Shown: positions 16,711 to 63,999 of the stretch, one piece after another
How positions within the stretch are numbered: the stretch's first letter is position 1
How the letters are laid out: every line of letters begins with the position of its first letter
Source: Patescibacteria group bacterium
Lineage (GTDB): Bacteria > Patescibacteriota > Patescibacteriia > UBA1558 > GWA2-36-10
Assembly: GCA_018819405.1 (NCBI GenBank)
Contig: JAHJQF010000001.1
Span: 290,097 to 354,096, forward strand
Length of the DNA stretch: 64,000 nucleotides
Direction of reading: 5' to 3'
The notes under the pieces: model-generated
The model's database searches: none
What the model was told of the DNA's origin: nothing
What the model saw: only the letters and a program-made list of their open reading frames with translations
Translations under genes and position numbers: made by a program

Positions 16711-16774
16711 ATTTATTAAGGTTAAAAAATAAAATTCATTTAAATATTCGGCGTTAGCCGAATAAAGTTATTTA

Positions 16775-44424: not shown

Positions 44425-44530
44425 GAATATAAACATCATTTTTTGCAATTATTTATAGCTAGTATATTCTCTCTAACATTAGCCATGTATTCTTTATCTG
44501 AGAGAATAGTTATAATATCGTTCTGAGACT

Positions 44531-44598
44531 GACCCCATAGAAGAAATCGCTCTAAAAGCGGTTTTTTGATATAATGATAATGTTATTAAAATAAAAAT
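44531..44598 (+). promoter_or_regulatory. conserved promoter/leader module (GACCCCATAG...hairpin...TTTTTTGATATAATG...GTTATTAAAATAAAAAT-ATG)
   Basis: Near-identical to 54047-54100. Extended -10 TGATATAAT. AT-rich conserved leader with no SD. Confidence 0.6.
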
Positions 44599-44787
44599 AT
44601 GGAAGAGAAAAAAATAAAACAAGAAAATATAACTATTCCTAAAAAGGCAATGTACGGTATTGCGCCAGTTATTGCTATATCTGCAGTATTAATTTCTAAA
44701 GATCAACCTGGGCCATTGCTTTTATTTTTTATTGGCATTAGCGCAGGAGTATTTATTGGTAAAGGATTTTTTGAAAATAAGAAATAA
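44599..44787 (+). CDS. small membrane protein (62 aa)
   Basis: Sits immediately behind the conserved leader. Confidence 0.4.
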   Translation: MEEKKIKQENITIPKKAMYGIAPVIAISAVLISKDQPGPLLLFFIGISAGVFIGKGFFENKK

Positions 44788-45116
44788 ATAATATGAAAAT
44801 ACAAGACACATTAGGAGCTGGCTTGGTTGTAGTAGGGATTATCTTTTTAAATAGTAATCCAACCATTGGAATGCTGTTTGTTGGATTTGGGTTAGGTTAT
44901 AATGTGCGTCCTCATCTACAAAAAATGTTTAAAAAGAAATAATTAGAATACAGGAATGTAAATATTTTCTTTTTGTTGTTGTATTTGAGTTCTAACTTTC
45001 TGTATTGTGCCACAATCATTTTTAGGGGTAGTAGCGAGAAGATATTAGAAATAAAATAATAAAAAAAGCAGGCCCAGATCACTGAATGTGATCTGGGCCT
45101 TTTCCGTCTATGCAGA

Positions 45117-46031
45117 TTATCTTGCCTGGTAGTTGGGGAGACCAACTACGCAAGGCAAAGCGGTGTCTGCGACGTGAAGCATTTCCGAAGTGATGTCTTG
45201 ACCTCCGCCGATGGTGGCATTGAACACCTTCACTTCCTGCTGGACGTCTACCTGGAGTGTCAGTCGTTGGTAGTGTTCAGCAAGGTGAAGAAGCGTGTGC
45301 AATATGTTGCCTGCCATCTTGCCGAGTGAAGGGACATCCTGCAGTGGATGAACTCGCTCGTCGAGAAATACTTGGGTGATTCGCTCTGATCCATATTCGA
45401 GTACTGCTTGGAGCAGTATAGCGACCTCTACGCTGTAACCAGAATAGAAGGTTGCTTTCTCGAGGAACTTGCGAGTCCCAGCATATTCTCCAGCCAGGGG
45501 CTGTATGAAATCGGCGGTTTCGGGAAATAGCATATTGAGGAAAGGTCGAGCTAGAAGCTCGGTTACCCTAGCGTCACCTTTGGGTCGCTTGTAGTATCCC
45601 TTGGTAAAGACTACCTCAGGATCCATCAGGAAGGGAGCGATAATTCCCAAGATGAAACGGGGGTGGATGTTCTCTATGTCGGTGTCAATCCAGGCGACGA
45701 CATCGCCAGTGGTATAGTACACACTACTCCATAGATTCCAGCCTTTTCCTCTTGCTAAGGGGATAGATATGGCCTTGGCAGTATGCTCATCTTGAATTGC
45801 TTTGAAGCCAAGCTGAGAACACATATCCAAGGTGTTGTCGGTTGATCCGCTGTCGAGCACGATGATCTCATCGACCAATGGCTGACATGACATAGCACAC
45901 TCGATGACACGAACAACTGTTGTCTCCTCATTTTTGACGGGGAGAGCCAAGCTGATCGTTATTTGGCGCTCTTGTTTGAGAGCCAAGAGGTGCGCCATGT
46001 CAGCGGCGTCTAAGTACGACATATATTTCAT
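45117..46031 (-). CDS. family-2 glycosyltransferase
   Basis: GT-A fold motifs VKNEE...LDSGSTD. GC-rich. Confidence 0.65.
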   Translation of the reverse strand: MKYMSYLDAADMAHLLALKQERQITISLALPVKNEETTVVRVIECAMSCQPLVDEIIVLDSGSTDNTLDMCSQLGFKAIQDEHTAKAISIPLARGKGWNLWSSVYYTTGDVVAWIDTDIENIHPRFILGIIAPFLMDPEVVFTKGYYKRPKGDARVTELLARPFLNMLFPETADFIQPLAGEYAGTRKFLEKATFYSGYSVEVAILLQAVLEYGSERITQVFLDERVHPLQDVPSLGKMAGNILHTLLHLAEHYQRLTLQVDVQQEVKVFNATIGGGQDITSEMLHVADTALPCVVGLPNYQAR

Positions 46032-47203
46032 GATTCACCTCCTATCATAGCACTACAGACCTTGCGGACAGCAGTGCAGCAGACGTCAACGAAATGACTG
46101 GTCACGTCGGGGTTGGTGTATAGGTTAAACAGCGATGTTGTCACCCGGTGTGAAACTACAGGCTGGTTGGAACCAGCAAATACCGCAGTTCTAGAAAGTG
46201 CTACTGGGTAAAGACAATTGACCATGGCTCCTTCAGCCCTTACAGCCTTAAGAAACCATTCTCGATGTGCTGATAGTTTGGTCATAAGGACTGCAGTCAG
46301 GCAGTGATTGACGTGACCATCTGCATCATCTTGGAACTGTAGGTGAAGTTCGTTCAGACCGTCACGATAGAGCGCAGCGTTATAACAGCGCGAGCGATTG
46401 AGGTCCGGCAGCTTACGCAGTTGGACAAGCCCAATAGCCGCCTGTAACTCTGTCATTGCGTAGTTGTAGCCGAGTTTATCGTAGTCGTATACGGCCAGGT
46501 TATCACTGGTCAATCCGTGTCGGGTCAGCGATCTACACCGCCGAGCCAACTCTTCATTTCTAGTGACAACCATTCCACCCTCTCCGCAGCTCATGTTCTT
46601 CGTTTGGTAGAAACTATAGCAGGCAATGTCTCCGAAGGTACCTACTATTTGCCCACTAATAGTAGCTCCATGAGCTTGGGCGCAGTCTTCTATCAGACGG
46701 ATTCCACGTTCTTTCACCAGGGACACGATTTGATCCATATCGGCAGGCATGCCGTATAGATGGACCACGATCACCGCCTTGGTGCGATTGGTTATTTTGG
46801 AACGCAGATCACGGACTGACAGGTTGAAGGTGTGGGGGTCAATGTCGCAAAACACGACTTTCGCCCCGGTTTGTAGAACTACCGAAGCGGTGGAAACGAA
46901 GGTCAAGTCAGGGACAATTACTTCGTCTCCATGGCCTATCTGCAAAGCATCGACAGCCGTATGAAGGGCAGTGGTGCCAGACGTAGTTGCAATCGCATAG
47001 GGCAAGTCGTGGTACGCAGCGAACGCTTGTTCAAACTGTTGTACCATTTCGCCCATGCCTGCTCTTGAAACTACACCTCTTCCCATTACCTCCCAGACAG
47101 CTTGCCGCTCTTCTTCGCCGAAGACCCGACCTCGTTTGAGACCTGCTGGATAAACGGCTTGACCACCGTTTATTGCCAGTGAAGGTTCTTCGAACATAAT
47201 CAC
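46028..47203 (-). CDS. DegT/DnrJ/EryC1/StrS-family PLP-dependent sugar aminotransferase
   Basis: Family-typical fold and conserved active-site Lys region. 4-nt overlaps with both neighbours. Confidence 0.8.
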   Translation of the reverse strand: MIMFEEPSLAINGGQAVYPAGLKRGRVFGEEERQAVWEVMGRGVVSRAGMGEMVQQFEQAFAAYHDLPYAIATTSGTTALHTAVDALQIGHGDEVIVPDLTFVSTASVVLQTGAKVVFCDIDPHTFNLSVRDLRSKITNRTKAVIVVHLYGMPADMDQIVSLVKERGIRLIEDCAQAHGATISGQIVGTFGDIACYSFYQTKNMSCGEGGMVVTRNEELARRCRSLTRHGLTSDNLAVYDYDKLGYNYAMTELQAAIGLVQLRKLPDLNRSRCYNAALYRDGLNELHLQFQDDADGHVNHCLTAVLMTKLSAHREWFLKAVRAEGAMVNCLYPVALSRTAVFAGSNQPVVSHRVTTSLFNLYTNPDVTSHFVDVCCTAVRKVCSAMIGGES

Positions 47204-48375
47204 TCCTTGATGTTGTCGGCGAAACTTTCGCCAAGAGGAATAGGATTGGCTCCTATTAGGTGACAGACGGTCTGTCCTAGATCGGCGAAGCTCGCTCGGG
47301 TTCCCAAGTTTGAGCCTGGTCGATCGCCACCGTTCAGTGCCAGAAGAGGTACGTACTCTCGCGTATGTCCCCGGATCGCTATGACTGGATCGCAGCCATG
47401 GTCGGCTACAATCAGCAGAAGATCGTCACGACCGATCATCGGCAGAACTTCGCCAAGTCTTTGGTCGAAGTACATAAGATCACGGGCATATTGACGTGGC
47501 TTACGCGCGTGGCCGGACATATCGAAGTCCGGCACAACGAACATGGCCGCGCCATCACCACCGGTTCCTAAGTGTCTAAGGACAGCGTCCATGACACCAG
47601 CCGAGTCCATGACACCGGGAATTGTCTCGGTGACGAACTCATCGCCTATCACTGAAGCGAGGTGTTCGGTAACCGTGAAAGGCATTCCGACTTCTCGTAT
47701 TCGGCGGAAGAGGTGTTCACGGTTCTTATCAAGTGGCACGACAATATCAGCTCGGTTCTCGGTGCGGACAAAGTCGCCTTTTTCACCGATGAAGGCTCGA
47801 GCGATGATTCTCGTGACATTTTTCCCGATGAAGAAACGAGACATCTTCCAGGCAACGTCATGTAGCCTGGCGGGCGGAACAACACTTTCGTGAGCCGCCA
47901 CCAAGACTACACCGTCATCGCAGGTGTAGACGATTGGCTGGCCTGTTGCGAAATGTTGGTCAGCGCATTCGTCAAACACCTTGAAACCGGAAACGTAGGC
48001 ATTACACAGTGTTAGGGTGCCTATGGCCTGTTGCATTTGCCGCACCAGGTCAGCTGACATCCTAGGGTAGAACGACGCGAATCGTTCTGCGAAGGTAACG
48101 CCTGCCATTTCCCAGACACCAGCAAAGGTGTCGTTTCCTGAGGTTATCTCGGTCATGCGTCCGTAGTGAGCCAGGGGATAATCAACCGTCGGTACATTAT
48201 TGACGCCGACGATATTACCAAAGCCTAGCCTCTCCAAGTTGGGAACTCGGAAGTCCGGGAGCGATTCAGCTGCGTGATGGAATGTGTTAGCGCCAACGCT
48301 CTTGTAGTCTGCTGCGTCAGGCTGAGCGCCGATGCCGACGCTATCCATCACTAGGATAATTATGCGTCGAAACAT
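47200..48375 (-). CDS. deoB: phosphopentomutase (DeoB family, alkaline-phosphatase superfamily)
   Basis: LVMDSVGIGA, SGNDTFAGVWEMAGV, RIIARAFIGEKGDFVRTENR and VADHGCDP blocks match E. coli DeoB. Confidence 0.75.
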   Translation of the reverse strand: MFRRIIILVMDSVGIGAQPDAADYKSVGANTFHHAAESLPDFRVPNLERLGFGNIVGVNNVPTVDYPLAHYGRMTEITSGNDTFAGVWEMAGVTFAERFASFYPRMSADLVRQMQQAIGTLTLCNAYVSGFKVFDECADQHFATGQPIVYTCDDGVVLVAAHESVVPPARLHDVAWKMSRFFIGKNVTRIIARAFIGEKGDFVRTENRADIVVPLDKNREHLFRRIREVGMPFTVTEHLASVIGDEFVTETIPGVMDSAGVMDAVLRHLGTGGDGAAMFVVPDFDMSGHARKPRQYARDLMYFDQRLGEVLPMIGRDDLLLIVADHGCDPVIAIRGHTREYVPLLALNGGDRPGSNLGTRASFADLGQTVCHLIGANPIPLGESFADNIKE

Positions 48376-48396
48376 CGTTCTTTCCTTTCCGACTTT

Positions 48397-49479
48397 TCAG
48401 TCGAGCGCCACTGGTTGCCCAGTTTTCGCCGAAAGATAGATGGCATCAACGATGCTCATCAGTCTGCAGGCCTCCAGAGGGCTAGTCAGTGGTTCATCCT
48501 CTCCTTGTAGTGATCTAACGAAGTTGATTGCAGCAGCTACGCGTCCCATCGTATTATCGAAGGGGACAGAGATGTTCTGGTTATTCGGCTGACCATCTTC
48601 CTGTGAGTATACCTCACAGGTGCCGGTAATTGTATCACCGGCGTTATCTTGGAACAGTCTAGAAACCATAGCCCCAGCTTTCTGCCCTTGCAGGGTCACA
48701 AAGCATTTTTCTTCTCGAACCATTTCGGCCCAAGAAATGTGGAGCGTGAGCACTTGCCCAGTTTCGAAGGTGATGGTGGCGTGAGCACTTGATTCAACAT
48801 CCGTGACACCGTCTCCGTTTGGTACTCCGTAGGGACCTCTGCGCGAGGGGTCATCCATGAAGTCGTTGAAGGTTTGACCCAGCACATGTTTCGGTTTGGG
48901 GTAGCCCATAAAGTATAGGGCTAAGTCTAGCATGTGCATCAGATCCATTAGCGCTCCGCCACCGGCTATTTTCTGGTTGGTGAACCAGTTTCCGTATCCC
49001 GGAATACCTGATCTACGAACCCAAACAGCTTGGGCAGAATTGATCCGGCCAAAGAATCCACTGTTGATACGTTGGATGATCTCCAGTGATTCTGGCCGTG
49101 CTCGATTGTTGAAGTCAAACAGGAGTTGCCTGCCGGATGCGCGAGAAGCCGAGAACATCTCTTGAGCTTCATACGCGTTCATTGCCGGGGGCTTTTCACA
49201 GAACACGTGCTTCCCAGCTCTCAGAGCCTGAATAGTAAGTGTTTTGTGGTGTGCTGGAGGTGTGAGAATGCTGACAGCGTCAACATCCGAAGATGCTAGA
49301 GTCAGCATTTCCTCAAGTGAAGTGAAAACTCGTGGTATCTTCCACTCAGTTGCGGCTTTTTGGGCCGCGACTGGATTCGTGTCGGCAACGCAGGTTATCT
49401 CAGCACCAGCTGAACGGAATCCGTTAGCTTGGTACTTGAGCATTACGCCTGCACCGACGATGCCGATTTTTAGAGACAT
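48397..49479 (-). CDS. Gfo/Idh/MocA-family NAD(P)-dependent oxidoreductase
   Basis: N-terminal Rossmann motif IGIVGAGVM. EKP motif. Confidence 0.75.
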   Translation of the reverse strand: MSLKIGIVGAGVMLKYQANGFRSAGAEITCVADTNPVAAQKAATEWKIPRVFTSLEEMLTLASSDVDAVSILTPPAHHKTLTIQALRAGKHVFCEKPPAMNAYEAQEMFSASRASGRQLLFDFNNRARPESLEIIQRINSGFFGRINSAQAVWVRRSGIPGYGNWFTNQKIAGGGALMDLMHMLDLALYFMGYPKPKHVLGQTFNDFMDDPSRRGPYGVPNGDGVTDVESSAHATITFETGQVLTLHISWAEMVREEKCFVTLQGQKAGAMVSRLFQDNAGDTITGTCEVYSQEDGQPNNQNISVPFDNTMGRVAAAINFVRSLQGEDEPLTSPLEACRLMSIVDAIYLSAKTGQPVALD

Positions 49480-49491
49480 CGTTTTCTCCTT

Positions 49492-50298
49492 CTAGGTTTT
49501 GGTGCAGACGAAAGTTCCGCGTGATCTGTCCAATACGATTGGCAGCTCCCTGCTGGACAACAGATTTCTCATTTCTGCTGCCAGGGCAGATTTTGTAGCT
49601 GCATCGCTGGTCGCTTCTTGGAAACTTGGCAGGGTAGTGTAGTACAGCATGAAGCTGTCTACGTCAGGAAACACCATTTGGAAACCATAGAAGTGGTACC
49701 TTACATCTCCGAAGAGATTATCGAGGTACTCTCTGGCATTTCCGCAGTGGAAAGGTGAACGAGAAAGGCGTACGTTGGTTTCGATGCCAACGCGAGATAT
49801 TGCTTCTTGATGGCATACTCTCAGTAGGTCATCGTCAGGAGTTTTTACTCCAGTTGTAATAATCACCTTTCCCTTTTTTCTGACTACTCGTAGTGATTCT
49901 CTTAACCCATGTTCAAGATCATCCACGTGATTCAGAACGTGTTTGGCAACTACCACATCAAATTGATCATCGCCGAAAGGCAGATTTTCAATTGACGCAA
50001 TAGCGCACAGGGGTGTGCTGATCGTGTTACAAGCTCTCTGGCAAGTGATACTCAACAGTGCTTGTGAAATATCTACGGCAAAGACTTTCCCGCCTTTGTT
50101 CAGTCGTTGGGTGATTATGGCAACATCTCTTCCGGTTCCCGAGCCAGCATCTAATACCAGCTCATCGCCCTCGAAGTGGATGAAGTCTATGCCATATTTA
50201 CCAGCGCCGACGCCGTATCTATCCCAAGCAAGCTCTCTGTTGAGTAGATTGCGCGCAGTCCCGTACTGGGCCTGCGGATCACTGTATTTGATCCTCAT
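49492..50298 (-). CDS. class I SAM-dependent methyltransferase
   Basis: Motif I VLDAGSGTGRD. Acidic-loop motifs. Confidence 0.7.
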   Translation of the reverse strand: MRIKYSDPQAQYGTARNLLNRELAWDRYGVGAGKYGIDFIHFEGDELVLDAGSGTGRDVAIITQRLNKGGKVFAVDISQALLSITCQRACNTISTPLCAIASIENLPFGDDQFDVVVAKHVLNHVDDLEHGLRESLRVVRKKGKVIITTGVKTPDDDLLRVCHQEAISRVGIETNVRLSRSPFHCGNAREYLDNLFGDVRYHFYGFQMVFPDVDSFMLYYTTLPSFQEATSDAATKSALAAEMRNLLSSRELPIVLDRSRGTFVCTKT

Positions 50299-50385
50299 GT
50301 CTATCTACTCCTTGTCAAGGTACAGCGTCAAACAATTTTGACTTTACAAAGTACCAGAAAACGGTTATTATGTCAACATAAGAAT

Positions 50386-50781
50386 ATGACTAAAAAGACG
50401 CAAAAAACAACTGTAAAAGCACTATTTGAGAAGGATAAAAGAATCCTTCTTGTTAAAGACCCTAAAGGTGTTTGGGAGATGCCCGGTGGTCGTATAGAGC
50501 ATGGTGAAACTCCAGAAAAAGCCCTAAAAAGAGAACTTAAAGAAGAGCTTGGCTGGAATAATGTAGATATTAAAAATATAGTTGACTCATGGACATTTTC
50601 TTCAGAAGTTGATGATACTAATTACCATTTTATTATTTTGACTTATGTTTGTGATTTTGGTGAAGAAGAAATAAAAGAAAATGACGAATATACAGAGTAT
50701 AGATGGGTGCCAGTTGATGAGATTGATGGGCTGAATATGAGGGATGGTTATAAGAAAACAATTAAGAAATTTATAGGTTAG
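50386..50781 (+). CDS. Nudix hydrolase
   Basis: GGRIEHGETPEKALKRELKEELG Nudix box. Low-GC. Start set at MTKKTQ. Confidence 0.7.
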   Translation: MTKKTQKTTVKALFEKDKRILLVKDPKGVWEMPGGRIEHGETPEKALKRELKEELGWNNVDIKNIVDSWTFSSEVDDTNYHFIILTYVCDFGEEEIKENDEYTEYRWVPVDEIDGLNMRDGYKKTIKKFIG

Positions 50782-51039
50782 TTCTAACCTAAAATAATCA
50801 AATACTACTCAGTGGCATTTCCATAGCAGGGGATGTCATTTTTGGTATGTCACCCAGCCCCTCGCGAGGAGCTGGGTCAAAATCGTTTAAATTAGAATAT
50901 AAAAAACCGAGAGATTATTAGGTATAATAAATCATTTTTATGGTATTTTTGCTATTTGACAAATATATATATAGTTTATAGTCTTAAGATGATCATCGTT
51001 ATTTCCGTGGGTTGCTAAAGCAAAGGAAGGAAGCGGATT

Positions 51040-51435
51040 ATGACACTCCAAAAGTTTAGCGAGTTGGTGCTCAAGGTTTTTGGTCACGCAACAGACTTTG
51101 AAGATGTTACCGACAGAAGTCCCGTGTATTATCCTGACGATTTTACCTGTTGGGAGACACATCTGAGGGCAAGCGTTGAGGTGGCTGGTGGGCCCGTTGA
51201 AGTGCACGCCTACTATCTTGGCGGATGTATCACTTGGACTGGGAAGGATGACTGGTATGGATTTAGAAAACATAATGCCATCCAGCGTGATGATACTGAA
51301 ACTGCCTTACGTACTTTGCATTGTATGTTGCATTTTGGTTATAGCCAGTCAAAAATTCTCCATTTACCAGATGGAAGCACCTTGGGACCCATTTGGGGGA
51401 CCAGCCATGAAGATTTGCGAGCTGAGATTACATAG
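51040..51435 (+). CDS. hypothetical protein
   Basis: RBS GGAAGGAAG. 131 aa. Terminator-like hairpin follows. The opposite-strand ORF 50938-51273 is judged spurious. Confidence 0.45.
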   Translation: MTLQKFSELVLKVFGHATDFEDVTDRSPVYYPDDFTCWETHLRASVEVAGGPVEVHAYYLGGCITWTGKDDWYGFRKHNAIQRDDTETALRTLHCMLHFGYSQSKILHLPDGSTLGPIWGTSHEDLRAEIT

Positions 51436-51689
51436 CCAGCTGGCAACTCAGACCGTGGTGGCCTCGTCAATTCGGACGGGGCCTTTCATTTTATAAAGCT
51501 ATGTTTAATTCTAACGCTCCAAAAATAAAAAATAATTTAAAATATCTTTGCATTACAAAATTGTCAGTTCAGCTATATAAACATCAGTTCAGTTCCGATA
51601 CGCTCCCTGCCCGCCATCGCTACGCCCAGGCGTAGCAGGCGGGTACTGTGGCACCCCAGTCAAAAGCTCCCAATTTCATTGGGGATTTT

Positions 51690-51754
51690 TGATACCCAGA
51701 AATAGAGTTAGAATTGGCAATGTGGTATAATGAATGTGTTATTAAAATAAAAAT
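51690..51754 (+). promoter_or_regulatory. conserved promoter/leader module (AAATAGAGTTAGAA...TGGTATAATGAATGTGTTATTAAAATAAAAAT-ATG)
   Basis: Same leader as at 44.5 kb, 57.0 kb and 59.0 kb. Preceded by the GC-rich nested hairpin at 51607-51648 and the CACCCCA box at 51647-51662. Confidence 0.6.
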
Positions 51755-52813: not shown

Positions 52814-52994
52814 ATTATTTAAATCTCCAACAAATAATCTAATCTTCGCAAATCATCATCGTCATACTTATCATAAAAAGTTCTGAAAGTGTCCCATATG
52901 CGATCCTATCAAAGAATCATTCCAAAATGAATGGTTTTTTGATATCCCTAAAATAGAGTTAGAACTAAAAGTATAAATTTGTTATAATTATGTT

Positions 52995-53987
52995 ATGAAA
53001 ATAATTTTTCCAAAAAAACTTAGCCAAGGCGATGAAGTAAGGGTCATAGCCCCTTCACGTTCTATGGCTATTATATCCGATCAATTAAAAAGTATAGCCA
53101 ATAAACGTTTTGCTGGTCTTGGTTTAAAATTAAGTTTTGGAAGAAACATAAATAAAAAAGACACATTCCTCTCATCTAATATAAAAGATAGAGTCAGTGA
53201 CTTGCACCAGGCATTTTCTGACAAAAATGTTAAAGCTATTATTACAGTAATAGGGGGATTTAGTAGTAATCAGTTATTGGATTATATAGACTGGCAATTG
53301 ATAAAAAGTAACCCTAAAATTTTATGTGGTTATTCTGATATTACTATTTTGAACAATGCTATTTTTCAAAAGGCAGGGTTAGTAAGTTATTATGGGCCAC
53401 ATTATTCTACATTTGGTCAAGAGTTATATTTTGATTATACATTAGATTATTTCAAGAAATGTTTGATGCAAAAAGACACTTTTAAAATTATACCCAGCAA
53501 AAACTGGAGTGATGATGAATGGTATAAAAATCAAAAAGGGAGAAAGCTAGTAAAAAACACTGGTTGGAAGATAATAAACAGTGGTAAGGCGAAGGGCACT
53601 TCTTTAGGTGGTAATTTATGCACCTTTAATCTACTACAGGGCACATCTTATTTTCCCAACATTAAAAATAGCATTTTATTTTTTGAAGATGATGAATTCG
53701 GTGGAAGTTATTCGGCTGTAGAGTTTGATCGAAATTTACAATCAGTAATTCAGCAACCAGGATTTAGCGGAGTAAAAGGAATCATTATTGGTAGGTTTCA
53801 AAAAGCCAGCGAAATGGATTTGATAAAAATTAGGCATATAATAAAATCAAAAAAAGAATTATCAAAGATACCAGTTATTTGTAATGTAGATTTTGGGCAC
53901 ACTGATCCCAAGATAACCTTTCCTATAGGTGGTACAGTAGAAATTGTTGCTAGTAAAGCACCAAGAATTGAATTTATAAAACATTAA
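52995..53987 (+). CDS. LD-carboxypeptidase (peptidase S66; LdcA/MccF-like)
   Basis: GDEVRVIAPS and GYSDIT serine-nucleophile motifs. Confidence 0.7.
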   Translation: MKIIFPKKLSQGDEVRVIAPSRSMAIISDQLKSIANKRFAGLGLKLSFGRNINKKDTFLSSNIKDRVSDLHQAFSDKNVKAIITVIGGFSSNQLLDYIDWQLIKSNPKILCGYSDITILNNAIFQKAGLVSYYGPHYSTFGQELYFDYTLDYFKKCLMQKDTFKIIPSKNWSDDEWYKNQKGRKLVKNTGWKIINSGKAKGTSLGGNLCTFNLLQGTSYFPNIKNSILFFEDDEFGGSYSAVEFDRNLQSVIQQPGFSGVKGIIIGRFQKASEMDLIKIRHIIKSKKELSKIPVICNVDFGHTDPKITFPIGGTVEIVASKAPRIEFIKH

Positions 53988-54046
53988 GCATAGGGATTTT
54001 TATATTATCCATTACAAAGAACGAAGTCCTAATACGCTCCACAGTG

Positions 54047-54121
54047 CGACCCCATAGAAGAAATCGCTCTAAAAGCGGTTTTTTGATATAATGAAAATAT
54101 TAATTTATTTAAAATATAATT
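54047..54121 (+). promoter_or_regulatory. conserved promoter/leader module (copy of 44531-44598)
   Basis: GCGACCCCATAGAAGAAATCGCTCTAAAAGCGGTTTTTTGATATAATGA is ~95% identical to 44528-44584. Confidence 0.6.
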
Positions 54122-54454
54122 ATGAATATTTTAATAACAGGGGCAGCTACAGGAATAGGGAAATCTTTGGCAGATAAATTTTCTAAAGAAGGGTATACAG
54201 TTATAAGCACTTATCATACCACCAAAGGACCTGGCTATCATTTGGATTTATCAAATGAGTCAGATATTAAAACATTGGTCAATAATATAGGTGTGTCTAC
54301 TGATAAGGTGGTCGAGGTAGTGTATAACACGGCGATGAATAAATATAAGTTAAAAAATGGAGCAGATATCAAAGTAAGAGATTATAGATTTGGTACATAC
54401 TTACGTATTCCTTTTATTGTAGCTAGAAAAGTTAAAAAATTAGCATTTAGTTAA
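54122..54454 (+). pseudogene. short-chain dehydrogenase/reductase N-terminal fragment
   Basis: TGAATGIGKS Rossmann motif. Only 110 aa, lacks the catalytic YxxxK region. Confidence 0.5.
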
Positions 54455-54588
54455 GAAAAAAGTTCTAATATCCCTGACTATGTCAACCCATCAAATAATT
54501 ATTCCATCAGTCAGTGGGTAGAGGAATGGTTTTTTGATTGTAAAATAAAAATTATGAGCGCGAGACATAACATCTCGCGCTCGTTTTT

Positions 54589-54969
54589 TCAGTTTATGCT
54601 CAGAGCCCATCGCACAAAGGGGTGAGTTTCTTCTTCGATAAGGTGTCGGATTTCGGGAATTTGGAGAAAATTGGGATCAATTTTCTCCAGCGAAAGCACA
54701 GCGTGACCGCGAGCCAGGTAGTGGTTGTCAGACAGTGCCTTGATGAGGCATTCCTTGGATCGGACCAGACCCAGATCACCTAGGCAGCGTATAGCATCGC
54801 AGCGGATGTAGTCGGTGTCGTCGGTGAGCACCAGATGTTCAACCAACACCACCACCCCCGGATCAGCGATTTTATCGTGCCAGACAATGTTGACAGCCGT
54901 ACCTTTCTGGTAAGGATCTGGGCAAACTAGCCAAGCTTTGAGTTTCACGGGGTCAAAATTCCTCTTCAT
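54589..54969 (-). CDS. HEAT/PBS-lyase-like repeat protein
   Basis: DxxxxIRxxAxxxLGxLG repeat pattern. Confidence 0.45.
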   Translation of the reverse strand: MKRNFDPVKLKAWLVCPDPYQKGTAVNIVWHDKIADPGVVVLVEHLVLTDDTDYIRCDAIRCLGDLGLVRSKECLIKALSDNHYLARGHAVLSLEKIDPNFLQIPEIRHLIEEETHPFVRWALSIN

Positions 54970-54973
54970 GGCT

Positions 54974-55480
54974 TTACCTTTCTAGCAGCTCTCTTAACTG
55001 CTTTAGCGTGTCTTCCATTTGGTAGAGTCGGATGCCAATCATAGGCACCCTTAGGCTTTGTTTATGCATCAAAGACTGCAATTCCTCAACGAAAATACCA
55101 CTACCTCTTAGGTGTTGTCTTTTTTCTCCGTAAATCAGATCTACGGCACAGGAAGGAGAAAAATCGATGCCTAAGACAGCCATCAGCTCGTTGCCGTTGT
55201 CTTTAAACAAGATCATCTGGCCTACTACTGTCTGAGCTAGTTGGCGACATACTGCCCGGTTACTTACCTTGTCATAGTGGGTCTTATGACAAGGCCTACG
55301 ACAAAAGCCGTCAAATATCAGCTCCGGACAGGGCATTTGTACCATGTTTATTTTATGCCTCGTAAGCATTTCTGTGACAGGGGTTATTATAGCCGGGTAT
55401 TTTCGGACAATACCTTGAGCCCTTACCCCTTGAGCTGTAGCACAAAAGGACAAAAAGACAAACCTTTTGCTTCTGTTCAT
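54974..55480 (-). CDS. DUF523-family protein (TudS-like [4Fe-4S] desulfurase family)
   Basis: Conserved Cys ligands including an MPCPE motif. Confidence 0.5.
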   Translation of the reverse strand: MNRSKRFVFLSFCATAQGVRAQGIVRKYPAIITPVTEMLTRHKINMVQMPCPELIFDGFCRRPCHKTHYDKVSNRAVCRQLAQTVVGQMILFKDNGNELMAVLGIDFSPSCAVDLIYGEKRQHLRGSGIFVEELQSLMHKQSLRVPMIGIRLYQMEDTLKQLRELLER

Positions 55481-55500
55481 AGCCGGCCTCCTGTTAAGGT

Positions 55501-55968
55501 TTAGTCCAATTCCTCTATTTCAATTCCATGGGCTTGTAAAAGAGCCGCGAAGACTCCTAGACCTTTCTTTTTTTGTCCTGAGAAGTCCCCGGTATATATG
55601 TGAAGTGCCCCACAAGTGGGGCTACCGGATTTAAGTAACACTTTTTTTATTTCGTTTTTTTGAATAATATCCAAAGCAAGTTTTGCTCCCTTGATAAATA
55701 CTTCAGTGTAATCAATACCATATTTATCTACTATTTTGGCTTTACCAGCCAATACATCTTTGCCATCGCCGCTTGATATTTCGCAAGCAGGCCTGGGAGT
55801 TGGCAATCCAGCTAGCACTTCCGGGCATATTATCAGAGATTTGCCTTTTAAAAATTCTTTTATAGCTTTAGGATTATTTTTACCTTTTTCATTCCAGCGG
55901 CAGGGTATACCTAAGAGGCAAGCGCTTATTGCTTGATTTAAATTATCTTTGTTTTTATTGTCCTCCAT
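55501..55968 (-). CDS. DUF523-family protein (TudS-like), second paralog
   Basis: SACLLGIPCRWNEKG and ICPEVLAGLPTPRP motifs typical of DUF523. Start placed at MEDNKNK. Confidence 0.55.
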   Translation of the reverse strand: MEDNKNKDNLNQAISACLLGIPCRWNEKGKNNPKAIKEFLKGKSLIICPEVLAGLPTPRPACEISSGDGKDVLAGKAKIVDKYGIDYTEVFIKGAKLALDIIQKNEIKKVLLKSGSPTCGALHIYTGDFSGQKKKGLGVFAALLQAHGIEIEELD

Positions 55969-56036
55969 ATATTTTAGCAAACTATTATTTTTGCTGGAGA
56001 GGGGAGATTTTTCATCACCCCTCTCTGGGGGATTGA

Positions 56037-56804
56037 CTAAGGCTGCAGAGTGCTCTCGCAGGCCATGATGCGTTTCAGGACTTCGGCCGTATAGCGGGTG
56101 ATCTCCTCGGGTTTGGCCGTGGAAAATGAGTCGGACCACATGCAGACCGGTTCCTGCTTGGGAATGTAGACACCAAGTTCGGCGAGCATTTGGTTGACCA
56201 CCGGCTTGTCGGCCAGGATATCATAGAGAGGCGAGAGGTAGGTCAAGCCGAAGTCGGCATAAATTTTCTTGAGGGGGACCATAAATTCATCGGTCTGTTC
56301 GGGGTAGTCCTTCTGGCGTTCGGCATAGCCGTCGAGGATCAGATGGATGCCGAGCTCCTGGGCGTATCGGGCGGCGGAGTAGTTCATGATCAGCTTGCAG
56401 GCCAGGCAGATCAGCAGTGTGCTGAAGCTGCGTTCTCTGAAATCGGCTTCAATTTGCTGCATACCGACTTGGCGCATCATCATGCTAACGCGTTTCATCT
56501 CGAAGATGATGTCGTTTCCAGGGTTGAGGTCTTGGATTATGCGCAGCTGCCGCTTGGTGGAATCCAGTCGACTGAGCAGGCCGTTGTCGATCAGGAGAAG
56601 ATGGAGTTGGCTGGCCGGAAAGGCCTTACAGAAAGCAGCGGCCACAGCACTGCTGTCACGTCCGCCGGAAAAAAGCAGGACAGCGCGTCCGTCAAAGTCG
56701 GGGACAGAGTTTATGATCCTTTCATGCACCAGCTGGATAGCTTGAGTCGCTAGTTCCTTCATTTCGTGCTCCAATCGTTGGTGTTGTTGATTGTGGGTGA
56801 ACAA
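56037..56804 (-). CDS. PP-loop superfamily ATPase (adenine nucleotide alpha-hydrolase)
   Basis: SGGRDS PP-motif. 255 aa. GC-rich. Confidence 0.6.
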   Translation of the reverse strand: MFTHNQQHQRLEHEMKELATQAIQLVHERIINSVPDFDGRAVLLFSGGRDSSAVAAAFCKAFPASQLHLLLIDNGLLSRLDSTKRQLRIIQDLNPGNDIIFEMKRVSMMMRQVGMQQIEADFRERSFSTLLICLACKLIMNYSAARYAQELGIHLILDGYAERQKDYPEQTDEFMVPLKKIYADFGLTYLSPLYDILADKPVVNQMLAELGVYIPKQEPVCMWSDSFSTAKPEEITRYTAEVLKRIMACESTLQP

Positions 56805-56999
56805 AGTGCTGTTGTCTGAACTTTACTTGAAATTAGCAAAAAAATCAAGTTAAATTTTTGGTAAAAAAATATCGTTCAAAACAAACTACAACGCATTTAC
56901 TATTTGTTCTACTGTGCCACCCCATCCCGTATAGCTACTTCGTAGCCACGGGACGCGGTCAAAAAGTGAGCTTCCGCCAGCTGGCGGATAGCTCGTTTT

Positions 57000-57040
57000 T
57001 TGATTTTTTGATATAATGAATTTGTTATTAAAATAAAAAC
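57000..57040 (+). promoter_or_regulatory. conserved promoter/leader module in front of a degraded gene
   Basis: TTTTTTGATATAATGAATTTGTTATTAAAATAAAAAC-ATG. Confidence 0.55.
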
Positions 57041-57420
57041 ATGAAGCTAGATAAAAAAACTTATTTATTGTGTTAGTATCTTTTCTTGCATTTCTTATAG
57101 TTAGGAATACTTATGACCCTAGTGTTAAATTACAAGTTATAAAAGTCGCATTACTTTTAACAACTTTAACATTTATTATAAAAGAAGCCTTTTTTAATCT
57201 AAAAGAATTAAAAAATCCTTTCAATACCCCTACTCTATATTTTTAATTATATTAGGATCTTTAGGATTCTTTTTATTTGTGTTTAATAAATCTAAAAAAT
57301 TTCAGAAGTTTATTATTAAAAGGTATCAGTCTTTTTCAAAAATTATTTTTTATACTTTTATGCTGGCTTTTATTTTTTTAATTACATCTATGATTACTCC
57401 ATTTATTTGGGGCTAGGATA
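57041..57420 (+). pseudogene. degraded membrane-protein gene (multiple stops and frameshifts)
   Basis: Conserved leader and ATG followed by a stop after 11 codons. Hydrophobic coding potential scattered across frames. No ORF of 60 aa or more. Confidence 0.4.
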
Positions 57421-57651
57421 TTTTTTTTCTTTATTAAAAATGTTAAAAATTAAGAATACTATATTGTAATTTTCCCCAATCCATGGTTCCCGCCTACGCT
57501 TTCGGGAGGCGTTTTTATTTAGCTTAAAATAGAGCTAGGTTTGAAAATACGATATAATTACAGCTAGTATAAAACCATTTAAATAGCCATAATAGTAGCT
57601 TTGTGGTATATTATGTCTATAGACATAGCATAACTATTAAATAAAAATATT

Positions 57652-57987
57652 ATGAAACTTTTAATAAATTGGTTAATTTTGACCTTAGCGGTGTTAGGGA
57701 CTTCGTATATTTTACCAGGCGTTTCTATTGGTGGTTTTTGGGCGGCTTTGATAACAGCTTTGGTGTTGGGTGTTGTAAATGCATTTATCAAGCCGATATT
57801 ATTGTTTTTGACTCTACCGATAAATATTTTGACACTAGGGCTTTTCACTTTTGTTATAAATGCATTATTAATACTTTTGGTATCAGCCATTGTTTCTGGT
57901 TTTAGTGTAGCAAATTTTTGGTGGGCACTTCTATTTAGTATAGTGATAACAGTTTTAGTTTATATTTTGAACAAAATAGTTAAATAA
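57652..57987 (+). CDS. phage-holin-4_2-family (YvlD-like) small membrane protein
   Basis: Three or four TM helices, 111 aa. Characteristic GGFWAALITALVLGVVNAFIKP segment. Confidence 0.55.
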   Translation: MKLLINWLILTLAVLGTSYILPGVSIGGFWAALITALVLGVVNAFIKPILLFLTLPINILTLGLFTFVINALLILLVSAIVSGFSVANFWWALLFSIVITVLVYILNKIVK

Positions 57988-58296
57988 TCTTTTAGCTTAT
58001 AATCAAGATCCGTAATGGACACCAATCAAAGATTCCCAGTTTTATTGGGGATTTTTGTTTGATTAAAATATGGTATAATCCAGAGTGTTATTAAAATAAA
58101 ATTATAAAATTATTAATTGTAATATTTGTTTTGATTGTAATATTTTTATTGTTGCTATCAATGGGTTTGCTTTCTAGGTATGATCTTGGTCCAGAAGAAA
58201 TACTTTTAAAATTATTTGGCAATTAAATTTATATAAACCTATTTTTGTTTTGAGTTTTTTGATATAATAAGCTTAATATTATTTAAACTAAAAAAC

Positions 58297-58920: not shown

Positions 58921-59024
58921 TATAATTTAATCCTAAGGTTTTAAACTTATTCCACCTCCTCATTTCACTGCTACGTTGGGAGGTGGGTTGCGGTAATATT
59001 ATTTTAATCAAAGCATTCCTTTTC

Positions 59025-59071
59025 TAGGGGATGGTTTTTTGATATACTGAATATGTTATTAAAATAAAAAT
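59025..59071 (+). promoter_or_regulatory. conserved promoter/leader module
   Basis: GGTTTTTTGATATACTGAATATGTTATTAAAATAAAAAT-ATG. Confidence 0.6.
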
Positions 59072-59989: not shown

Positions 59990-60017
59990 AGGTTTATATA
60001 TTATTGTAAATAAAGTT

Positions 60018-60764: not shown

Positions 60765-60816
60765 CTTAAATTAAAAAACTATTCTAAACAGAATGGTTTT
60801 TTGATATACTTAATTT

Positions 60817-61905: not shown

Positions 61906-62002
61906 GTATATAAAATATAGATGATTGATATTTTAGATTGGTGGTTTATAGCTATAGACTATTTATGAAGTGTGATATACTATATATATTAATAAAAATA
62001 TT

Positions 62003-62545
62003 ATGGTAATGAAAAAAAATCAGGCGTCCCAGGACATATTTACTGAGACAGGTAGACATATTATAAATCAATCTGTAGCCATACTCTGTGATGGAAATAA
62101 TATTGAAAGAAGTATTCATGATATTTCCAAAAATCAAAATGCCATGATTGATTTTGATAAGGTCATACCCAAACTATTAAATGGTAGGGGTCTAAATAGG
62201 TTGTTATATTTTCGTGAGGGCAAATCTATCTCTTCCAAATTTGCCGAAAGACTGCACGAAAATTATTATGGCTCAGTTATACCATGTCATAAATCAGCTG
62301 ATATTCCTCTGACAATCAAAGCTACTCAGCTATCCTCAAAGGTGGATACTATCATCATAATGTCAGGTGATTCTGATTATGTAGATTTGGTGGATCACCT
62401 AAAGGGCGAAGGTGTAAGAGTAGAGATAGCAGCTGTCAAAAAAACCGCTGCAAAGATACTTATTGATGAAGCAGATTATTTTTATGAGATTACCAAGGAA
62501 GACTGGTTTGTTTATAAGGCTCCAAACAAATATAGCAATAGGTGA
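62003..62545 (+). CDS. NYN-domain (LabA-like) protein
   Basis: ILCDGNNIER and IIMSGDSDYVDLV motifs. Confidence 0.6.
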   Translation: MVMKKNQASQDIFTETGRHIINQSVAILCDGNNIERSIHDISKNQNAMIDFDKVIPKLLNGRGLNRLLYFREGKSISSKFAERLHENYYGSVIPCHKSADIPLTIKATQLSSKVDTIIIMSGDSDYVDLVDHLKGEGVRVEIAAVKKTAAKILIDEADYFYEITKEDWFVYKAPNKYSNR

Positions 62546-62619
62546 TAGTATAAATGAGATATTATAGAGAGTATATAAAAATCATTCCAAAGTGGATGAT
62601 TTCTTGGTATAATATATTT

Positions 62620-63999
62620 ATGATAATGAGAAAAATTTTTCTTATCTTAGGATTATTAATATCAACTTATCTTTTTACTGCATCTGTCATCGGCTATGCA
62701 GCTGATGACAATTTGAGTAATAGACTCAAAGGCTATGTTCTTCTTCAAGTAGAAGAACATGGCGAAGCTTGGTATGTAGAGCCTAATGATGCCAAAAGAA
62801 TATACATGAAAAATGGAAACGTTGCCTATGATGTTATGGGTGATTTTGGTCTAGGAATTACTAATGCTGACTTAGCTAAAATACCAGTAGGCTTTGAAGA
62901 TAGATTTTTTTGTATTGATAATGACAACGATGGATTATGCAATAAATTAGAAGAAGGTTTAGAAACAGATATTAATAATCCAGATTCTGACGGCGATGGG
63001 TATACTGACAGGATAGAAATAGAAAGCTTATATAATCCTTTGGGAGAAAGTAAGATAAAATATGATTATCAACTGGCTAACAGACTAAGAGGTTATATAG
63101 TTTTGCAGGTAGAAAAAAATGGTCAAGCTTGGTATATCAATCCCCAAGATGCCAAAAGATATTATATGACGGATGGCGAAGCCGCTTATCAAATTATGCG
63201 CTATTTATCATTGGGAATCACTAATGCAGATTTGGCTAAAATAGATATATCAGACTACAAAATAGTAGAAGATATTCCGGCTCCAACTCAATATTGTGGA
63301 GATAATATTTGCAACAACAACGAAACATGTAATACCTGCGCGCCTGATTGTGGAGTGTGTCAAGCTGCAGTTTGTGGTAACAACAAAAAAGAAGCAGGTG
63401 AAGAGTGTGATGGCAGTCAAGGTGTAGCAGAAGGTTATATTTGTAATAGTAGTTGCCAACTTGAACAGATAACAGATACTCCTGAATGTGGCAACAATAT
63501 ATTAGAAACTGGAGAAGAGTGCGATGGTACAGCAGGCATAAGTCAGGGCTATGTTTGTAATAATTTTTGTAATTTGGAAGCCGTCTCATATTGCGGTGAT
63601 GGAGCTTGTGATTTTCCTAGTGAAGACCAAAGTAGTTGCTCGGCTGATTGCAGTTTGGAGGGGCCAGAGGATCTTTTTAATATGGATGACATGCTAGATG
63701 TTTCAACATTAAATACTCAGATAAAAGATGTTTATACTGTGTTTACTGATTTAGGAGAATTGAGAGCAGCAGATGTACAATATTATGTAGGTAATTGGTA
63801 CGGAGTTGATATATATAATACTGGCACAGTTTATTTTCCGAGAAACATCCCAACTCAAAATCTTGGCAAAGCAGCTATAATGCAAGGTTATTCTAAAGAT
63901 GTCCAGACCGGCCCCAATTTTCTAGAAGATTTTGCTCAAAATACTGCTTTGATTTTTGGAATTCCTGTTTATTCATGTTCTTGTGGTTATCCGGCCGAA
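62620..63999 (+). CDS. secreted repeat protein, partial (runs off window end), with internal ~58-aa duplication, thrombospondin-type-3 motif and Myxococcus-type Cys-rich repeats
   Basis: Open frame from ATG 62620 to the window end; not in the ORF track because no stop is present. LANRLxGYxxLQVE...GITNADLAKI repeated twice. NPDSDGDGYTD. CGNNxxExGEECDG repeated three times. Confidence 0.55.
   Translation, partial: MIMRKIFLILGLLISTYLFTASVIGYAADDNLSNRLKGYVLLQVEEHGEAWYVEPNDAKRIYMKNGNVAYDVMGDFGLGITNADLAKIPVGFEDRFFCIDNDNDGLCNKLEEGLETDINNPDSDGDGYTDRIEIESLYNPLGESKIKYDYQLANRLRGYIVLQVEKNGQAWYINPQDAKRYYMTDGEAAYQIMRYLSLGITNADLAKIDISDYKIVEDIPAPTQYCGDNICNNNETCNTCAPDCGVCQAAVCGNNKKEAGEECDGSQGVAEGYICNSSCQLEQITDTPECGNNILETGEECDGTAGISQGYVCNNFCNLEAVSYCGDGACDFPSEDQSSCSADCSLEGPEDLFNMDDMLDVSTLNTQIKDVYTVFTDLGELRAADVQYYVGNWYGVDIYNTGTVYFPRNIPTQNLGKAAIMQGYSKDVQTGPNFLEDFAQNTALIFGIPVYSCSCGYPAE

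Follow-up and report, generated by a model that had tools for sequence, protein, structure and literature searches.

In the genomic islands of Prochlorococcus, with their tycheposons, partial tRNA copies stem from successive integrations, with new elements pushing the older ones deeper into the island (Hackl et al., 10.1101/2020.12.28.424599). The cis-mobilizable elements (CIMEs) of Streptococcus are integrase-less, att-flanked segments at the 3' end of a gene, which are thought to be moved in trans by the integrase of a related element (PMC5704250). The locus described here can be set beside both. It occupies 41.8-62.6 kb of a stretch of 64,000 nucleotides (hereafter the window) from the ~1.04-Mb genome of a member of the Patescibacteria, or candidate phyla radiation (CPR) (assembly GCA_018819405.1, contig JAHJQF010000001.1, positions 290,097 to 354,096), and we read it, with a probability of roughly 0.7, as a hypervariable cassette array at the 3' end of a tRNA-His gene, built on att-like terminator-promoter units. 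Whether site-specific recombination is the mechanism is a separate matter, on which we see the odds as even.

As in the tRNA islands of Prochlorococcus, an intact tRNA gene stands at the start of the locus, direct repeats of the tRNA 3' end follow it in one orientation, and variable content lies between syntenic flanks; the host genome is likewise streamlined, and the model in which new arrivals push older elements distally fits both. Unlike in those islands, the repeat consists mainly of the 3' flank, with only ~9-13 nt of the tRNA itself, the segments comprise one to a few genes with units every 0.4-5.8 kb, no integrase or remnant of one is present in ~30 kb, and the units are more conserved than the core genes. 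The locus shares with CIMEs segments that lack an integrase and sit at a gene's 3' end between direct repeats of att type, but CIMEs are decayed integrative and conjugative, or integrative and mobilizable, elements that occur one or a few per site, whereas here at least ten small cassettes come with a conserved expression module; no helper element was identified, although large-serine-recombinase elements occupy this tRNA-His in three of the relatives. A further parallel is provided by sedentary chromosomal integrons such as those with the Vibrio repeats (VCRs), in which co-oriented, unrelated and mostly single-gene cassettes are likewise separated by homogeneous palindromic repeats of ~100 nt and vary in order between relatives. 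Unlike integrons, the locus lacks intI, attI and Pc beside it, its cassettes are individually equipped with promoters, a tRNA 3' end forms part of the repeat, and an attC fold is doubtful. The Correia elements of Neisseria are short intergenic repeats that give promoter and terminator activity, dispersed genome-wide in both orientations and with target duplications; the units described here resemble them in offering a putative promoter and terminator to neighbouring genes, but they lie in one tRNA-anchored locus. In other words, what is new with respect to the known islands and arrays is a dense series of small cassettes, with no integrase, a short tRNA identity and a composite terminator-promoter-leader repeat that is common across genomes.

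The array is anchored at its left-hand end by the following gene.

41809-41883, + strand: intact tRNA-His(GTG), ending in ...CTCTGGGCACCCCA, called by both ARAGORN and Rfam.

A tRNA-His gene in which the CCA is encoded is expected to end in CACCCCA, that is, the 3' strand of the acceptor stem, the discriminator C73 and CCA. In the window, a hairpin and a T-run stand directly 3' of this gene. Because this flank resembles the repeats of the array only weakly, related contigs were examined, and it is through these that the link becomes clear. In one relative (L077) the intact tRNA-His runs into CACCCCA-TCAAAGACCCCCAATTTCATTGGGGATTTTTGATACCTTAAAATAGAGTTAGAAC...TGGTATAAT (read further, CACCCCA-TCAAAGACCCCCAATTTCATTGGGGATTTTTGATACCTTAAAATAGAGTTAGAACTAATTATATAAATTTGGTATAAT), in which TCAAAGACCCCCAATTTCATTGGGGATTTTTGATACCTTAAAATAGAGTTAGAACTAATTATATAAATTTGGTATAAT includes the hairpin found in units b and h of the window, together with the -35-like motif AAAATAGAGTTAGAA and the -10 box. 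In another (L078) the intact tRNA-His is followed by ...GGAATGGTTTTTTGATATACTAAATATGTTATTAAAATACAATTATG (read further, CACCCCA-TCAGAGAATCATTCCAAAAGGAATGGTTTTTTGATATACTAAATATGTTATTAAAATACAATTATG), which is the block that a first-pass annotation of this DNA had singled out before many gene starts. Five further units lie downstream in L078 before unrelated genes, four of them ending at most 3 nt from a called gene start. Since the intact tRNA-His genes of both relatives run straight into the modules of the unit, the 'promoter-leader cassette' and the 'CACCCCA hairpins' of that annotation appear to be two halves of one unit of ~50-165 nt, which would stand at every cassette boundary and consist of the tRNA-His 3' end and its native 3' flank, reiterated along the locus. 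On the + strand, direct repeats of the tRNA 3' end, (G)GCACCCCA or ACCCCAT, are found at 44531, 51650, 54048 and 56916 and, in degenerate form, at 54484 and 58016. Rfam searches (the whole window at gathering thresholds and 41.5-64 kb at E <=10) returned only two tRNAs, and no riboswitch, small RNA or partial tRNA.

The unit is modular. Its 5' part is a conserved non-tRNA arm, AAGTYCTAATACGCTCC, with or without a GC hairpin and then ACTGTG; second comes GGCACCCCA(T), the same bases with which tRNA-His ends, and third a stable hairpin with the base ATCAAAG...TTTTTGAT and a T-run. An optional fourth module, CCNWRAAATAGAGTTAGAAC (core AAATAGAGTTAGAAC), precedes the extended -10 box TGnTATAAT, after which the unit ends either in an A/T-rich leader of ~20 nt without a Shine-Dalgarno (SD) motif (GTTATTAAAATAAAAAT) or with the ATG 6 nt past the -10 box. 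The third to sixth modules are those that stand directly 3' of the intact tRNA-His in L077 and L078, and the 5' arm is conserved among the pseudo-units of three genomes and absent beside intact tRNAs. A short form, TTTTTTGATATAAT, and a long form both occur in several units of at least two genomes, the short form looking like a deletion of the optional module; the long units contain GTTAGAA(C), with the complementary AGTTCTAA ~90 nt upstream. Hairpins of -7 to -18 kcal/mol and runs of T5-7 are present in all units, with at least six different stem sequences that show compensatory differences. As the hairpin is kept while the stems vary in this compensating manner, selection on its structure is indicated, and the hairpin with its T-run looks like an intrinsic terminator, several of the hairpins being flagged by a consensus terminator scan. 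A reading of the 5' arm (GTTCTAA...) as a tRNA T-loop was rejected (shuffle test, p = 0.37).

The first-pass annotation had counted at least ten almost invariant 40-nt blocks, a figure that was too generous, though the repeats themselves are real. When its 42-nt consensus, GGTTTTTTGATATAATGAATGTGTTATTAAAATAAAAATATG, is scored in register against the sequences that run up to the ten start codons it named, near-identity is found at 44599 (39/42), 51755 (37/42), 57041 (39/42) and 59072 (40/42), whereas the remaining six score 16-23/42, which is within the range of 38 control AT-rich gene starts in the window (11-26/42). With indels allowed, 54122 aligns to the block at 33/41 positions and 58297 at 32/37; sub-blocks only are kept at 52995, 60817 and 62620 (17-19 nt) and at 57652 (a 16-nt piece of the leader). 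One more full copy, the fifth, occupies 58065-58106 and has no ATG. Four to five copies are near-invariant, in other words, and the rest are partial members of one modular repeat family. The sub-motifs of this family are far beyond chance: GGTTTTTTGAT has six copies and TTTTTTGATAT seven, every one of them on the + strand in the interval 44.5-60.8 kb, with none in the rest of the window, and the 20-nt leader, with at most 3 mismatches, has six matches against 0.09 expected. Units a and d share 47 consecutive identical nucleotides (44531-44577 and 54048-54094), such that the annotated likeness of 44528-44584 to 54044-54100 is indeed close, but at roughly 90% over the 57 nt rather than ~95%. Other details were accurate: the -35-like AAAATAGAGTTAGAA is present at 51702, at 52953 and, in degenerate form, at 57525, CACCCCA boxes do exist at 44527, 51647, 54043 and 56903, and the extended -10 of the block is canonical, directly after a terminator-like hairpin. 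Nor does the motif precede most genes, as a generic promoter of the organism would, since both the strict block and the complete unit stay within a single locus of 21 kb in the 72.5 kb examined. A search of genome and metagenome contigs with the pattern TATAMT-N6-TGTTATTAAAATAAAA gave single unrelated chance matches only, and BLAST of the window against those loci gave nothing.

An inventory of units was obtained with a profile hidden Markov model built from the units of L077 and L078 only, and with a second profile built from all units, those of the window included. The range searched was 72.5 kb of the ~1.04 Mb contig, namely the window and 8.5 kb beyond it (extension locus L074). The relatives-only profile finds the tRNA (E 8e-8) and ten sites with E between 5.5e-20 and 0.1, all on the + strand, with matches starting at 52877, 51628, 57994, 59014, 54023, 54459, 44510, 60772, 56906 and 62577. 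It has no match between 1 and 41 kb, none on the minus strand and none in the 8.5-kb extension (64-72.5 kb), and the addition of the window's units gives stronger significance and no new loci. Four candidates below the profile threshold were recognised by eye (n at 44985, m at 50781, g at 57488 and i at 58248). In order along the array, the units are as follows.

41884-41950, + strand: tRNA-adjacent unit; hairpin ATATCGCTAATTTTAGCGGTGTTTTTG (-13.7 kcal/mol), then GGGAATAGAACTAAAATG resembling the C module; profile match 41857-41943, E 8e-8; 18-nt spacing from TTTTTG to TAGAACTAAAA, the same as in unit c; without promoter or leader, a GC-rich minus-strand radical-SAM gene coming next.
44508-44598, + strand: unit a; 5' arm, GACCCCAT, hairpin and T-run, TGATATAAT, leader; E 4e-3 (relatives only), 1.7e-15 (all units); genes for membrane proteins of 62 aa and 48 aa downstream.
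44985-45062, + strand: probable degenerate unit n; GAGTTCTAAC..CTGTATTGTGCCAC..AATCA..GATATTAGAAATAAAATAATAAAAAAAG; by eye, below threshold; TGTGCCAC in common with unit f; adjoins the terminator of a GC-rich block.
50781-50935, + strand: probable degenerate unit m; GTTCTAACC.., CAGTGGCATTTCCATAG, hairpin with TTTTTGGTAT, TAGGTATAAT; by eye, below threshold; terminator-like hairpin at 50811-50840; an SD-bearing open reading frame (ORF) of 131 aa next.
51591-51754, + strand: unit b, long form; a GC hairpin inserted into the 5' arm, then ACTGTGGCACCCCAG, hairpin CCCAATTTCATTGGGG, TTTTTGATACCCAGAAATAGAGTTAGAA, TGGTATAAT, leader; E 2e-17 (relatives only); before the gene for a 352-aa membrane-anchored protein.
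52876-52994, + strand: unit c, long form; 5' arm, 16-bp hairpin TATCAAAGAATCATTC/GAATGGTTTTTTGATA (-16.6 kcal/mol), CCCTAAAATAGAGTTAGAAC, TGTTATAAT; E 5.5e-20 (relatives only); TGTTATAAT lies 6 nt before the ATG of an LD-carboxypeptidase gene.
54022-54121, + strand: unit d, short form; the 47-nt match to unit a; found by both profiles; before a truncated short-chain dehydrogenase ORF (110 aa).
54458-54556, + strand: unit e; 5' arm, CAACCCAT, hairpin, GGTTTTTTGAT, leader remnant TGTAAAATAAAAATTATG; E 2e-3 (relatives only), 6e-10 (all units); directly followed by the terminator of the GC-rich minus-strand block 54557-56800.
56895-57040, + strand: unit f; 5' arm, CTGTGCCACCCCAT, two GC hairpins (-42.8 kcal/mol), duplicated TTTTTTGAT, TGATATAAT, leader; E 0.024 (relatives only), 6e-12 (all units); before a decayed membrane ORF.
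57488-57651, + strand: partial unit g; hairpin and T-run, TTAAAATAGAGCTAGG resembling the C module, -10 boxes, leader ACTATTAAATAAAAATATTATG; by eye, no profile match; terminator-like hairpin at 57496-57512; a PF04020 membrane-protein gene next.
57994-58106, + strand: unit h; GGACACCAATCAAAG, hairpin CCCAGTTTTATTGGGG, TGGTATAAT, leader with ATG changed to ATA; E 3.7e-5 (relatives only); a decayed small ORF after it.
58248-58296, + strand: partial unit i; GAGTTTTTTGATATAAT and a divergent leader; repeat family D13, local 32/37; no profile match; before a ferric-reductase-like membrane-protein gene.
59003-59071, + strand: unit j, short form; ATCAAAGCATTCC..GGGGATGGTTTTTTGATATACT, leader; E 1e-4 (relatives only); before the gene for a 305-aa paralogue of the product at 51755 (repeat family D6) and a methyltransferase gene.
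60771-60816, + strand: unit k; hairpin, GGTTTTTTGATATACT, ATG 6 nt past the -10 box; E 0.01 (relatives only); before YibE/F and NYN genes.
62574-62619, + strand: unit l, the weakest; hairpin ATCATTCC..GGATGAT, TTCTTGGTATAAT, ATG 6 nt past the -10 box; E 0.11 (relatives only), 0.02 (all units); before the gene for a 765-aa PhoPQ-related protein; the last unit, with none in the next 8.5 kb.

That the locus is hypervariable is seen from a comparison with its relatives. The upstream gene order POR, Big_13, HisKA, MFS, Rpe, RpiB is kept in six related contigs, and the ABC transporter gene that lies in the window at 39451-41199 precedes tRNA-Arg and tRNA-His in all six but L206. Behind the tRNA-His, the relatives have different cassettes, or the same ones re-ordered, between the same units. 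The array genes of L078 have no close homologue in the window's array, the best reaching 33% (NUDIX) and 25% (methyltransferase) amino acid identity. The units are nonetheless better conserved than the genes: unit b and the L078 unit L078_20092 are identical at 94/106 nt (89%) though both flanking genes are unrelated, as compared with 74.7% nucleotide identity for the ABC transporter gene and 85% for tRNA-His. In L206, an LdcA cassette (84% nucleotide identity to window 52978-54040) adjoins a NUDIX cassette (80% to 50407-50775), each bounded by units, while in the window two other cassettes lie between the same two; the LdcA homology starts ~17 nt before the ATG and stops at the 5' arm of the next unit.

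The same tRNA end also receives other elements. Large serine recombinase genes overlap, with their own 3' ends, the tRNA-His 3' end in L075 (11,923-13,536), L079 (12,126-13,625) and L203, a member of the Komeilibacteria (11,930-13,630), their products of 499-566 aa having Resolvase, Recombinase and Zn_ribbon_recom domains. With such elements at this tRNA-His in three relatives, its 3' end is a hot spot for integration in general. Behind these recombinases come small genes of phage-like or defence type, in L203 AbiEii and a type I restriction-modification system. Four related contigs (L075, L077, L079 and L204) stop 2.6-4.7 kb past the tRNA-His, which fits a repeat-rich or heterogeneous spot that breaks metagenome assemblies.

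Several peculiarities of the relatives may be recorded here. The gap between tRNA-Arg and tRNA-His is 2 nt in L075 and 9 nt in L203, and in L078 a 91-aa GIY-YIG ORF (12,071-12,346) lies between the two. In L206 (2,100-11,700) the tRNA-Arg/tRNA-His pair is inverted relative to the Rpe and RpiB genes, and units stand on either side of it, on the minus strand at 2104-3338 and on the + strand at 9957-11662, which suggests an inversion between oppositely oriented units; the L206 tRNA-His has a different acceptor stem (CACTCACCCCA).

The native genes of the cassettes, rich in A and T, occupy the + strand; the window as a whole is AT-rich as well, with ~33% GC. The cassette genes encode small membrane proteins, two paralogous anchored proteins, an LD-carboxypeptidase, a truncated short-chain dehydrogenase and a PF04020 protein, and in addition a ferric-reductase-like protein, a methyltransferase, YibE/F, an NYN-domain protein and a PhoPQ-related protein. 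Some of this cargo is decayed: the short-chain dehydrogenase (54,122-54,454) is cut at ~110 aa exactly where unit e starts, the membrane ORF behind unit f (57,041-57,420) is frameshifted, and the small ORF behind unit h (58,107-58,226) has lost its ATG to ATA. Blocks of higher GC content (45-55%) on the minus strand, at 41984-43492, 45091-50753 and 54557-56800, lie directly behind units, with their terminators adjoining the 3' end of the unit. Two of these can be described more fully.

45091-50753, - strand: sugar-modification block, ~50% GC, SD-bearing; genes for GT2, a DegT aminotransferase, a metalloenzyme, a GFO/IDH/MocA oxidoreductase and a methyltransferase, and a divergent NUDIX gene (Pfam).
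54557-56800, - strand: GC-rich block behind unit e; HEAT-repeat, two DUF523-type and QueC-like genes (Pfam).

Over its 5.66 kb, the sugar-modification block has 79% nucleotide identity to L200 and L201 and 75% to L202, which are contigs of other Patescibacteria with unrelated contexts, and in all three it is likewise a GC-rich island amid an AT-rich background. In L200, the block is situated between two tyrosine-recombinase genes. A donor outside the CPR was considered for the GC-rich DegT block and rejected, as the closest homologues (77-82%) are all from Patescibacteria.

As regards expression, the TGnTATAAT box of the units also heads core operons, at 27262, 28637, 32255 and 41984. Its distance to the ATG is 23 nt in units a, b, f and j, 28-29 nt in d and i, and 6 nt in c, k and l, and this last spacing would imply leaderless or nearly leaderless mRNAs. 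Among 61 gene starts of the window, an SD-like motif precedes 2/50 AT-rich genes as against 9/11 GC-rich foreign ones; native start codons are preceded by A/T-rich stretches such as AAAATAAAAATATG. SD-independent initiation thus appears to be the default of the organism. The absence of an SD motif and the TGnTATAAT box are genome-wide traits, not the signature of a regulon, and the unit is probably a plain insulator, a terminator followed by a promoter of housekeeping type.

Site-specific integration of the Campbell type at the units is the mechanism that the arrangement of the locus favours, because the 5' arm is present in every pseudo-unit and not at the intact tRNA, because the array is anchored at a tRNA 3' end, and because the units are strictly co-oriented. 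The units would be comparable to the attP/attR sites of small circular elements whose target is the tRNA-His 3' end, older cassettes being pushed distally with each arrival. Indeed, if circles carrying an attP-like site (5' arm, core and 3' arm) integrate at the end of a tRNA, the 5' arm is predicted in the pseudo-copies only. Through recombination at the units, cassettes could then enter, leave and be shuffled. The hairpin and T-run of each unit would end the transcript of the tRNA or of the upstream cassette, and the extended -10 would restart transcription for the next one. The GC-rich, SD-bearing foreign blocks presumably landed, antisense, immediately behind three of the units.

Several observations weigh against reading the locus as a tRNA-derived array of this kind. 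The identity of the units to tRNA-His is short, ~9-13 nt, and does not include the T-arm, and a profile made from the 5' parts of pseudo-units fails to retrieve true tRNA-His genes, such that a tRNA origin of the 5' arm was rejected. The 3' flank of the window's own tRNA-His is only weakly like the units, BLAST, nhmmer and Smith-Waterman comparisons within the window being non-significant, and the distribution of units is known over 72.5 kb of a 1.04 Mb contig. No recombinase domain is found in the ORFs of 41.9-64 kb, nor among the called genes as far as 72.5 kb. Duplicate assemblies of relatives are identical, and no polymorphism, empty site or excised circle was seen among the assemblies compared. 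Finally, a given type of unit can precede unrelated genes on both sides, a pattern that homologous recombination between units, or gene conversion, would also explain. With respect to a source of the recombinase, tblastn with the serine recombinases of the relatives gave no match; in viral contigs, a loose pattern had ~120 chance matches, none fitting the unit profile, and a specific pattern had none, and no phage or plasmid bearing attP was found.

Of the other explanations, the one in which the units are portable homology arms of ~100 bp accounts for much of the same evidence. Cassettes would in that case be exchanged, duplicated or lost by RecA-dependent homologous recombination, either through unequal crossing-over inside one genome or through double crossover after uptake of DNA from relatives. 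It requires no recombinase gene in or beside the array, where none is found; the units are 80-100% identical over 47-106 nt within and between genomes; and the same unit type stands before unrelated genes, the LdcA homology shared with L206 beginning and stopping inside units. We nevertheless consider it unlikely, if a serious rival and the foremost of the alternatives, since a non-tRNA 5' arm that is present in pseudo-units and absent at the intact tRNA is unexpected from simple duplication of the flank, and strict co-orientation together with anchoring at a tRNA 3' end is the classic signature of an integrase. It is also conceivable, though doubtful, that the locus is a capture platform of the Patescibacteria not described before, in which the tRNA-His 3' end takes the place of attI, a composite site of ~100 nt comprises terminator, promoter and leader, such that each captured cassette would be insulated and expressed by itself, and recombination is provided in trans, possibly by an XerA/IntI-like recombinase. 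The only recombinase of the window is of that type, a tyrosine recombinase encoded at 16863-17729, ~25 kb away and beside a second array. It is central also to an integron-like interpretation, by which the units are an attC-type cluster without an adjacent integrase, served in trans by this enzyme and sharing it with the array at 1-16.7 kb. In this regard, the recombinase passes model NF040815 ('tyrosine recombinase/integron integrase'; 228.6 bits, cut-off 220) and adjoins an array whose GCCTAAC / GTTGGGT sites fold like large attC; the outer boxes of the long units, AGTTCTAA / TTAGAACT, are near the consensus RYYYAAC / GTTRRRY, with TTCTAAC and GTTAGAA each one base off it; and co-oriented, unrelated ORFs are split by homogeneous repeats with imperfect palindromes. 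The interpretation is improbable all the same. The enzyme stays below the cut-off of the integron-integrase model TIGR02249 (203.8 bits, cut-off 265, the match being split in two pieces), pairing of the outer boxes is limited to the centroid structure of a single unit, where internal loops of ~14-20 nt are far larger than those of attC, and the short units lack the R'-like GTTAGAA box. Moreover, the cassettes have their own promoters, with TGnTATAAT 6-29 nt before the ATG, and the sites of the two arrays share no significant similarity. An attC-like fold of the long units, tried as a candidate, had weak and inconsistent support.

Two further explanations, both of them close to what the first-pass annotation had proposed, fare worse. 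The units could be a miniature inverted-repeat transposable element of the Correia type, that is, a terminator with an outward promoter that has transposed into intergenic sites, and it is true that they are sharply bounded, stand before unrelated genes and, in the long form, are bracketed by an 8-nt inverted repeat, AGTTCTAA...TTAGAACT. This is very improbable, however, because every unit detected belongs to a single locus and has the same orientation from tRNA-His onwards, with none in the 41 kb core or the 8.5-kb extension, because the 8-nt inverted repeat is limited to long units and the copies at intact tRNAs lack its left half, and because the array has no transposase gene; no target-site duplications were noticed either, although no systematic search for them was made. 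The annotation's idea of a promoter-terminator unit that has spread was close to the evidence and in part right, having missed the origin at tRNA-His and the role at cassette boundaries. Its other idea was a dedicated regulon, in which a shared operator, an alternative-sigma promoter or a special translation leader serves genes for envelope or secreted proteins. The leader does include TTATT-AA-AATAA as an inverted repeat (about +1 to +20), the edge of the array has a gene for a TrmB-family regulator (43690-44424), and many cassette products are membrane or secreted proteins. A regulon based on a dedicated sigma factor or translation signal is ruled out because the -10 box, a housekeeping TGnTATAAT, matches that of core operons and because SD-less A/T-rich leaders are widespread. 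Furthermore, the leader is present on only four to five units, the cargo is functionally mixed and includes cytoplasmic enzymes and pseudogenes, and in the relatives the same units head unrelated genes, so that it is the unit which is conserved and not a regulated set of genes. The regulon is accordingly largely refuted, and we give it next to no weight. Integration at the tRNA-His 3' end, with reiterated att-like units, is the reading that we prefer.

The second array, at the left-hand end of the window (1-16,760), is a different arrangement. Here, D1 sites (ATTTCGCCTAACAGACAAGCGTATGCGAAGT; at least ten copies) alternate with D2 sites (CCGCATACGCGGTGTTGGGTGATGT; at least nine copies), the two being imperfect inverted repeats of each other with integron-like GCCTAAC / GTTGGGT boxes, and minus-strand ORFs occupy both kinds of interval. 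The XerA/IntI-like tyrosine recombinase gene (16,863-17,729) is divergent and lies at the end of the array, and a D2-D1 pair without an ORF (14750-14970) folds like a large attC (z = -4.55). This may be an integron whose attC sites are giant, or else a pdif-module type of array. About 600 nt are duplicated 15 kb apart (73-678 and 15,069-15,691; 77-93% identity; repeat families D8, D10 and D11), and a Logan contig (L001) stops inside this duplicate. At the 3' ends of D1 copies, the + strand has extended -10-like boxes (TGTGGTAAAAT, TATGATAAAAT and similar), antisense to the cassette ORFs, and a conserved GC-rich segment of 69 nt follows three D1 copies (5,280-5,348; 6,150-6,218; 12,551-12,619); together these may form an antisense or small-RNA transcription unit. 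The motif ATACGC-N4-CTGT occurs in the D1 reverse complement and in the 5' arm of unit d (54,032-54,045) and, with an inserted hairpin, in unit b and one L206 unit. As a link between the two arrays it is non-significant, with one match in the right-hand array against 1.6 expected across the window, and it is the only hint of one recombinase reading both.

The genomes of CPR bacteria are tiny and generally held to be poor in recognisable mobile elements, and the manner in which these organisms gain and shuffle accessory genes is poorly understood. The locus at tRNA-His shows a compact and conserved route by which this may happen, in which one short repeat marks the recombination junctions and, by all appearances, also ends the upstream transcript and drives the next cassette by means of the signals of the host. 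Through the foreign GC-rich blocks that it holds, the array is recognisable as a point of entry for horizontal transfer. Knowledge of the recombination mechanism would offer a handle on gene flow in an uncultivated radiation, as well as a natural landing pad with built-in expression signals for its engineering.

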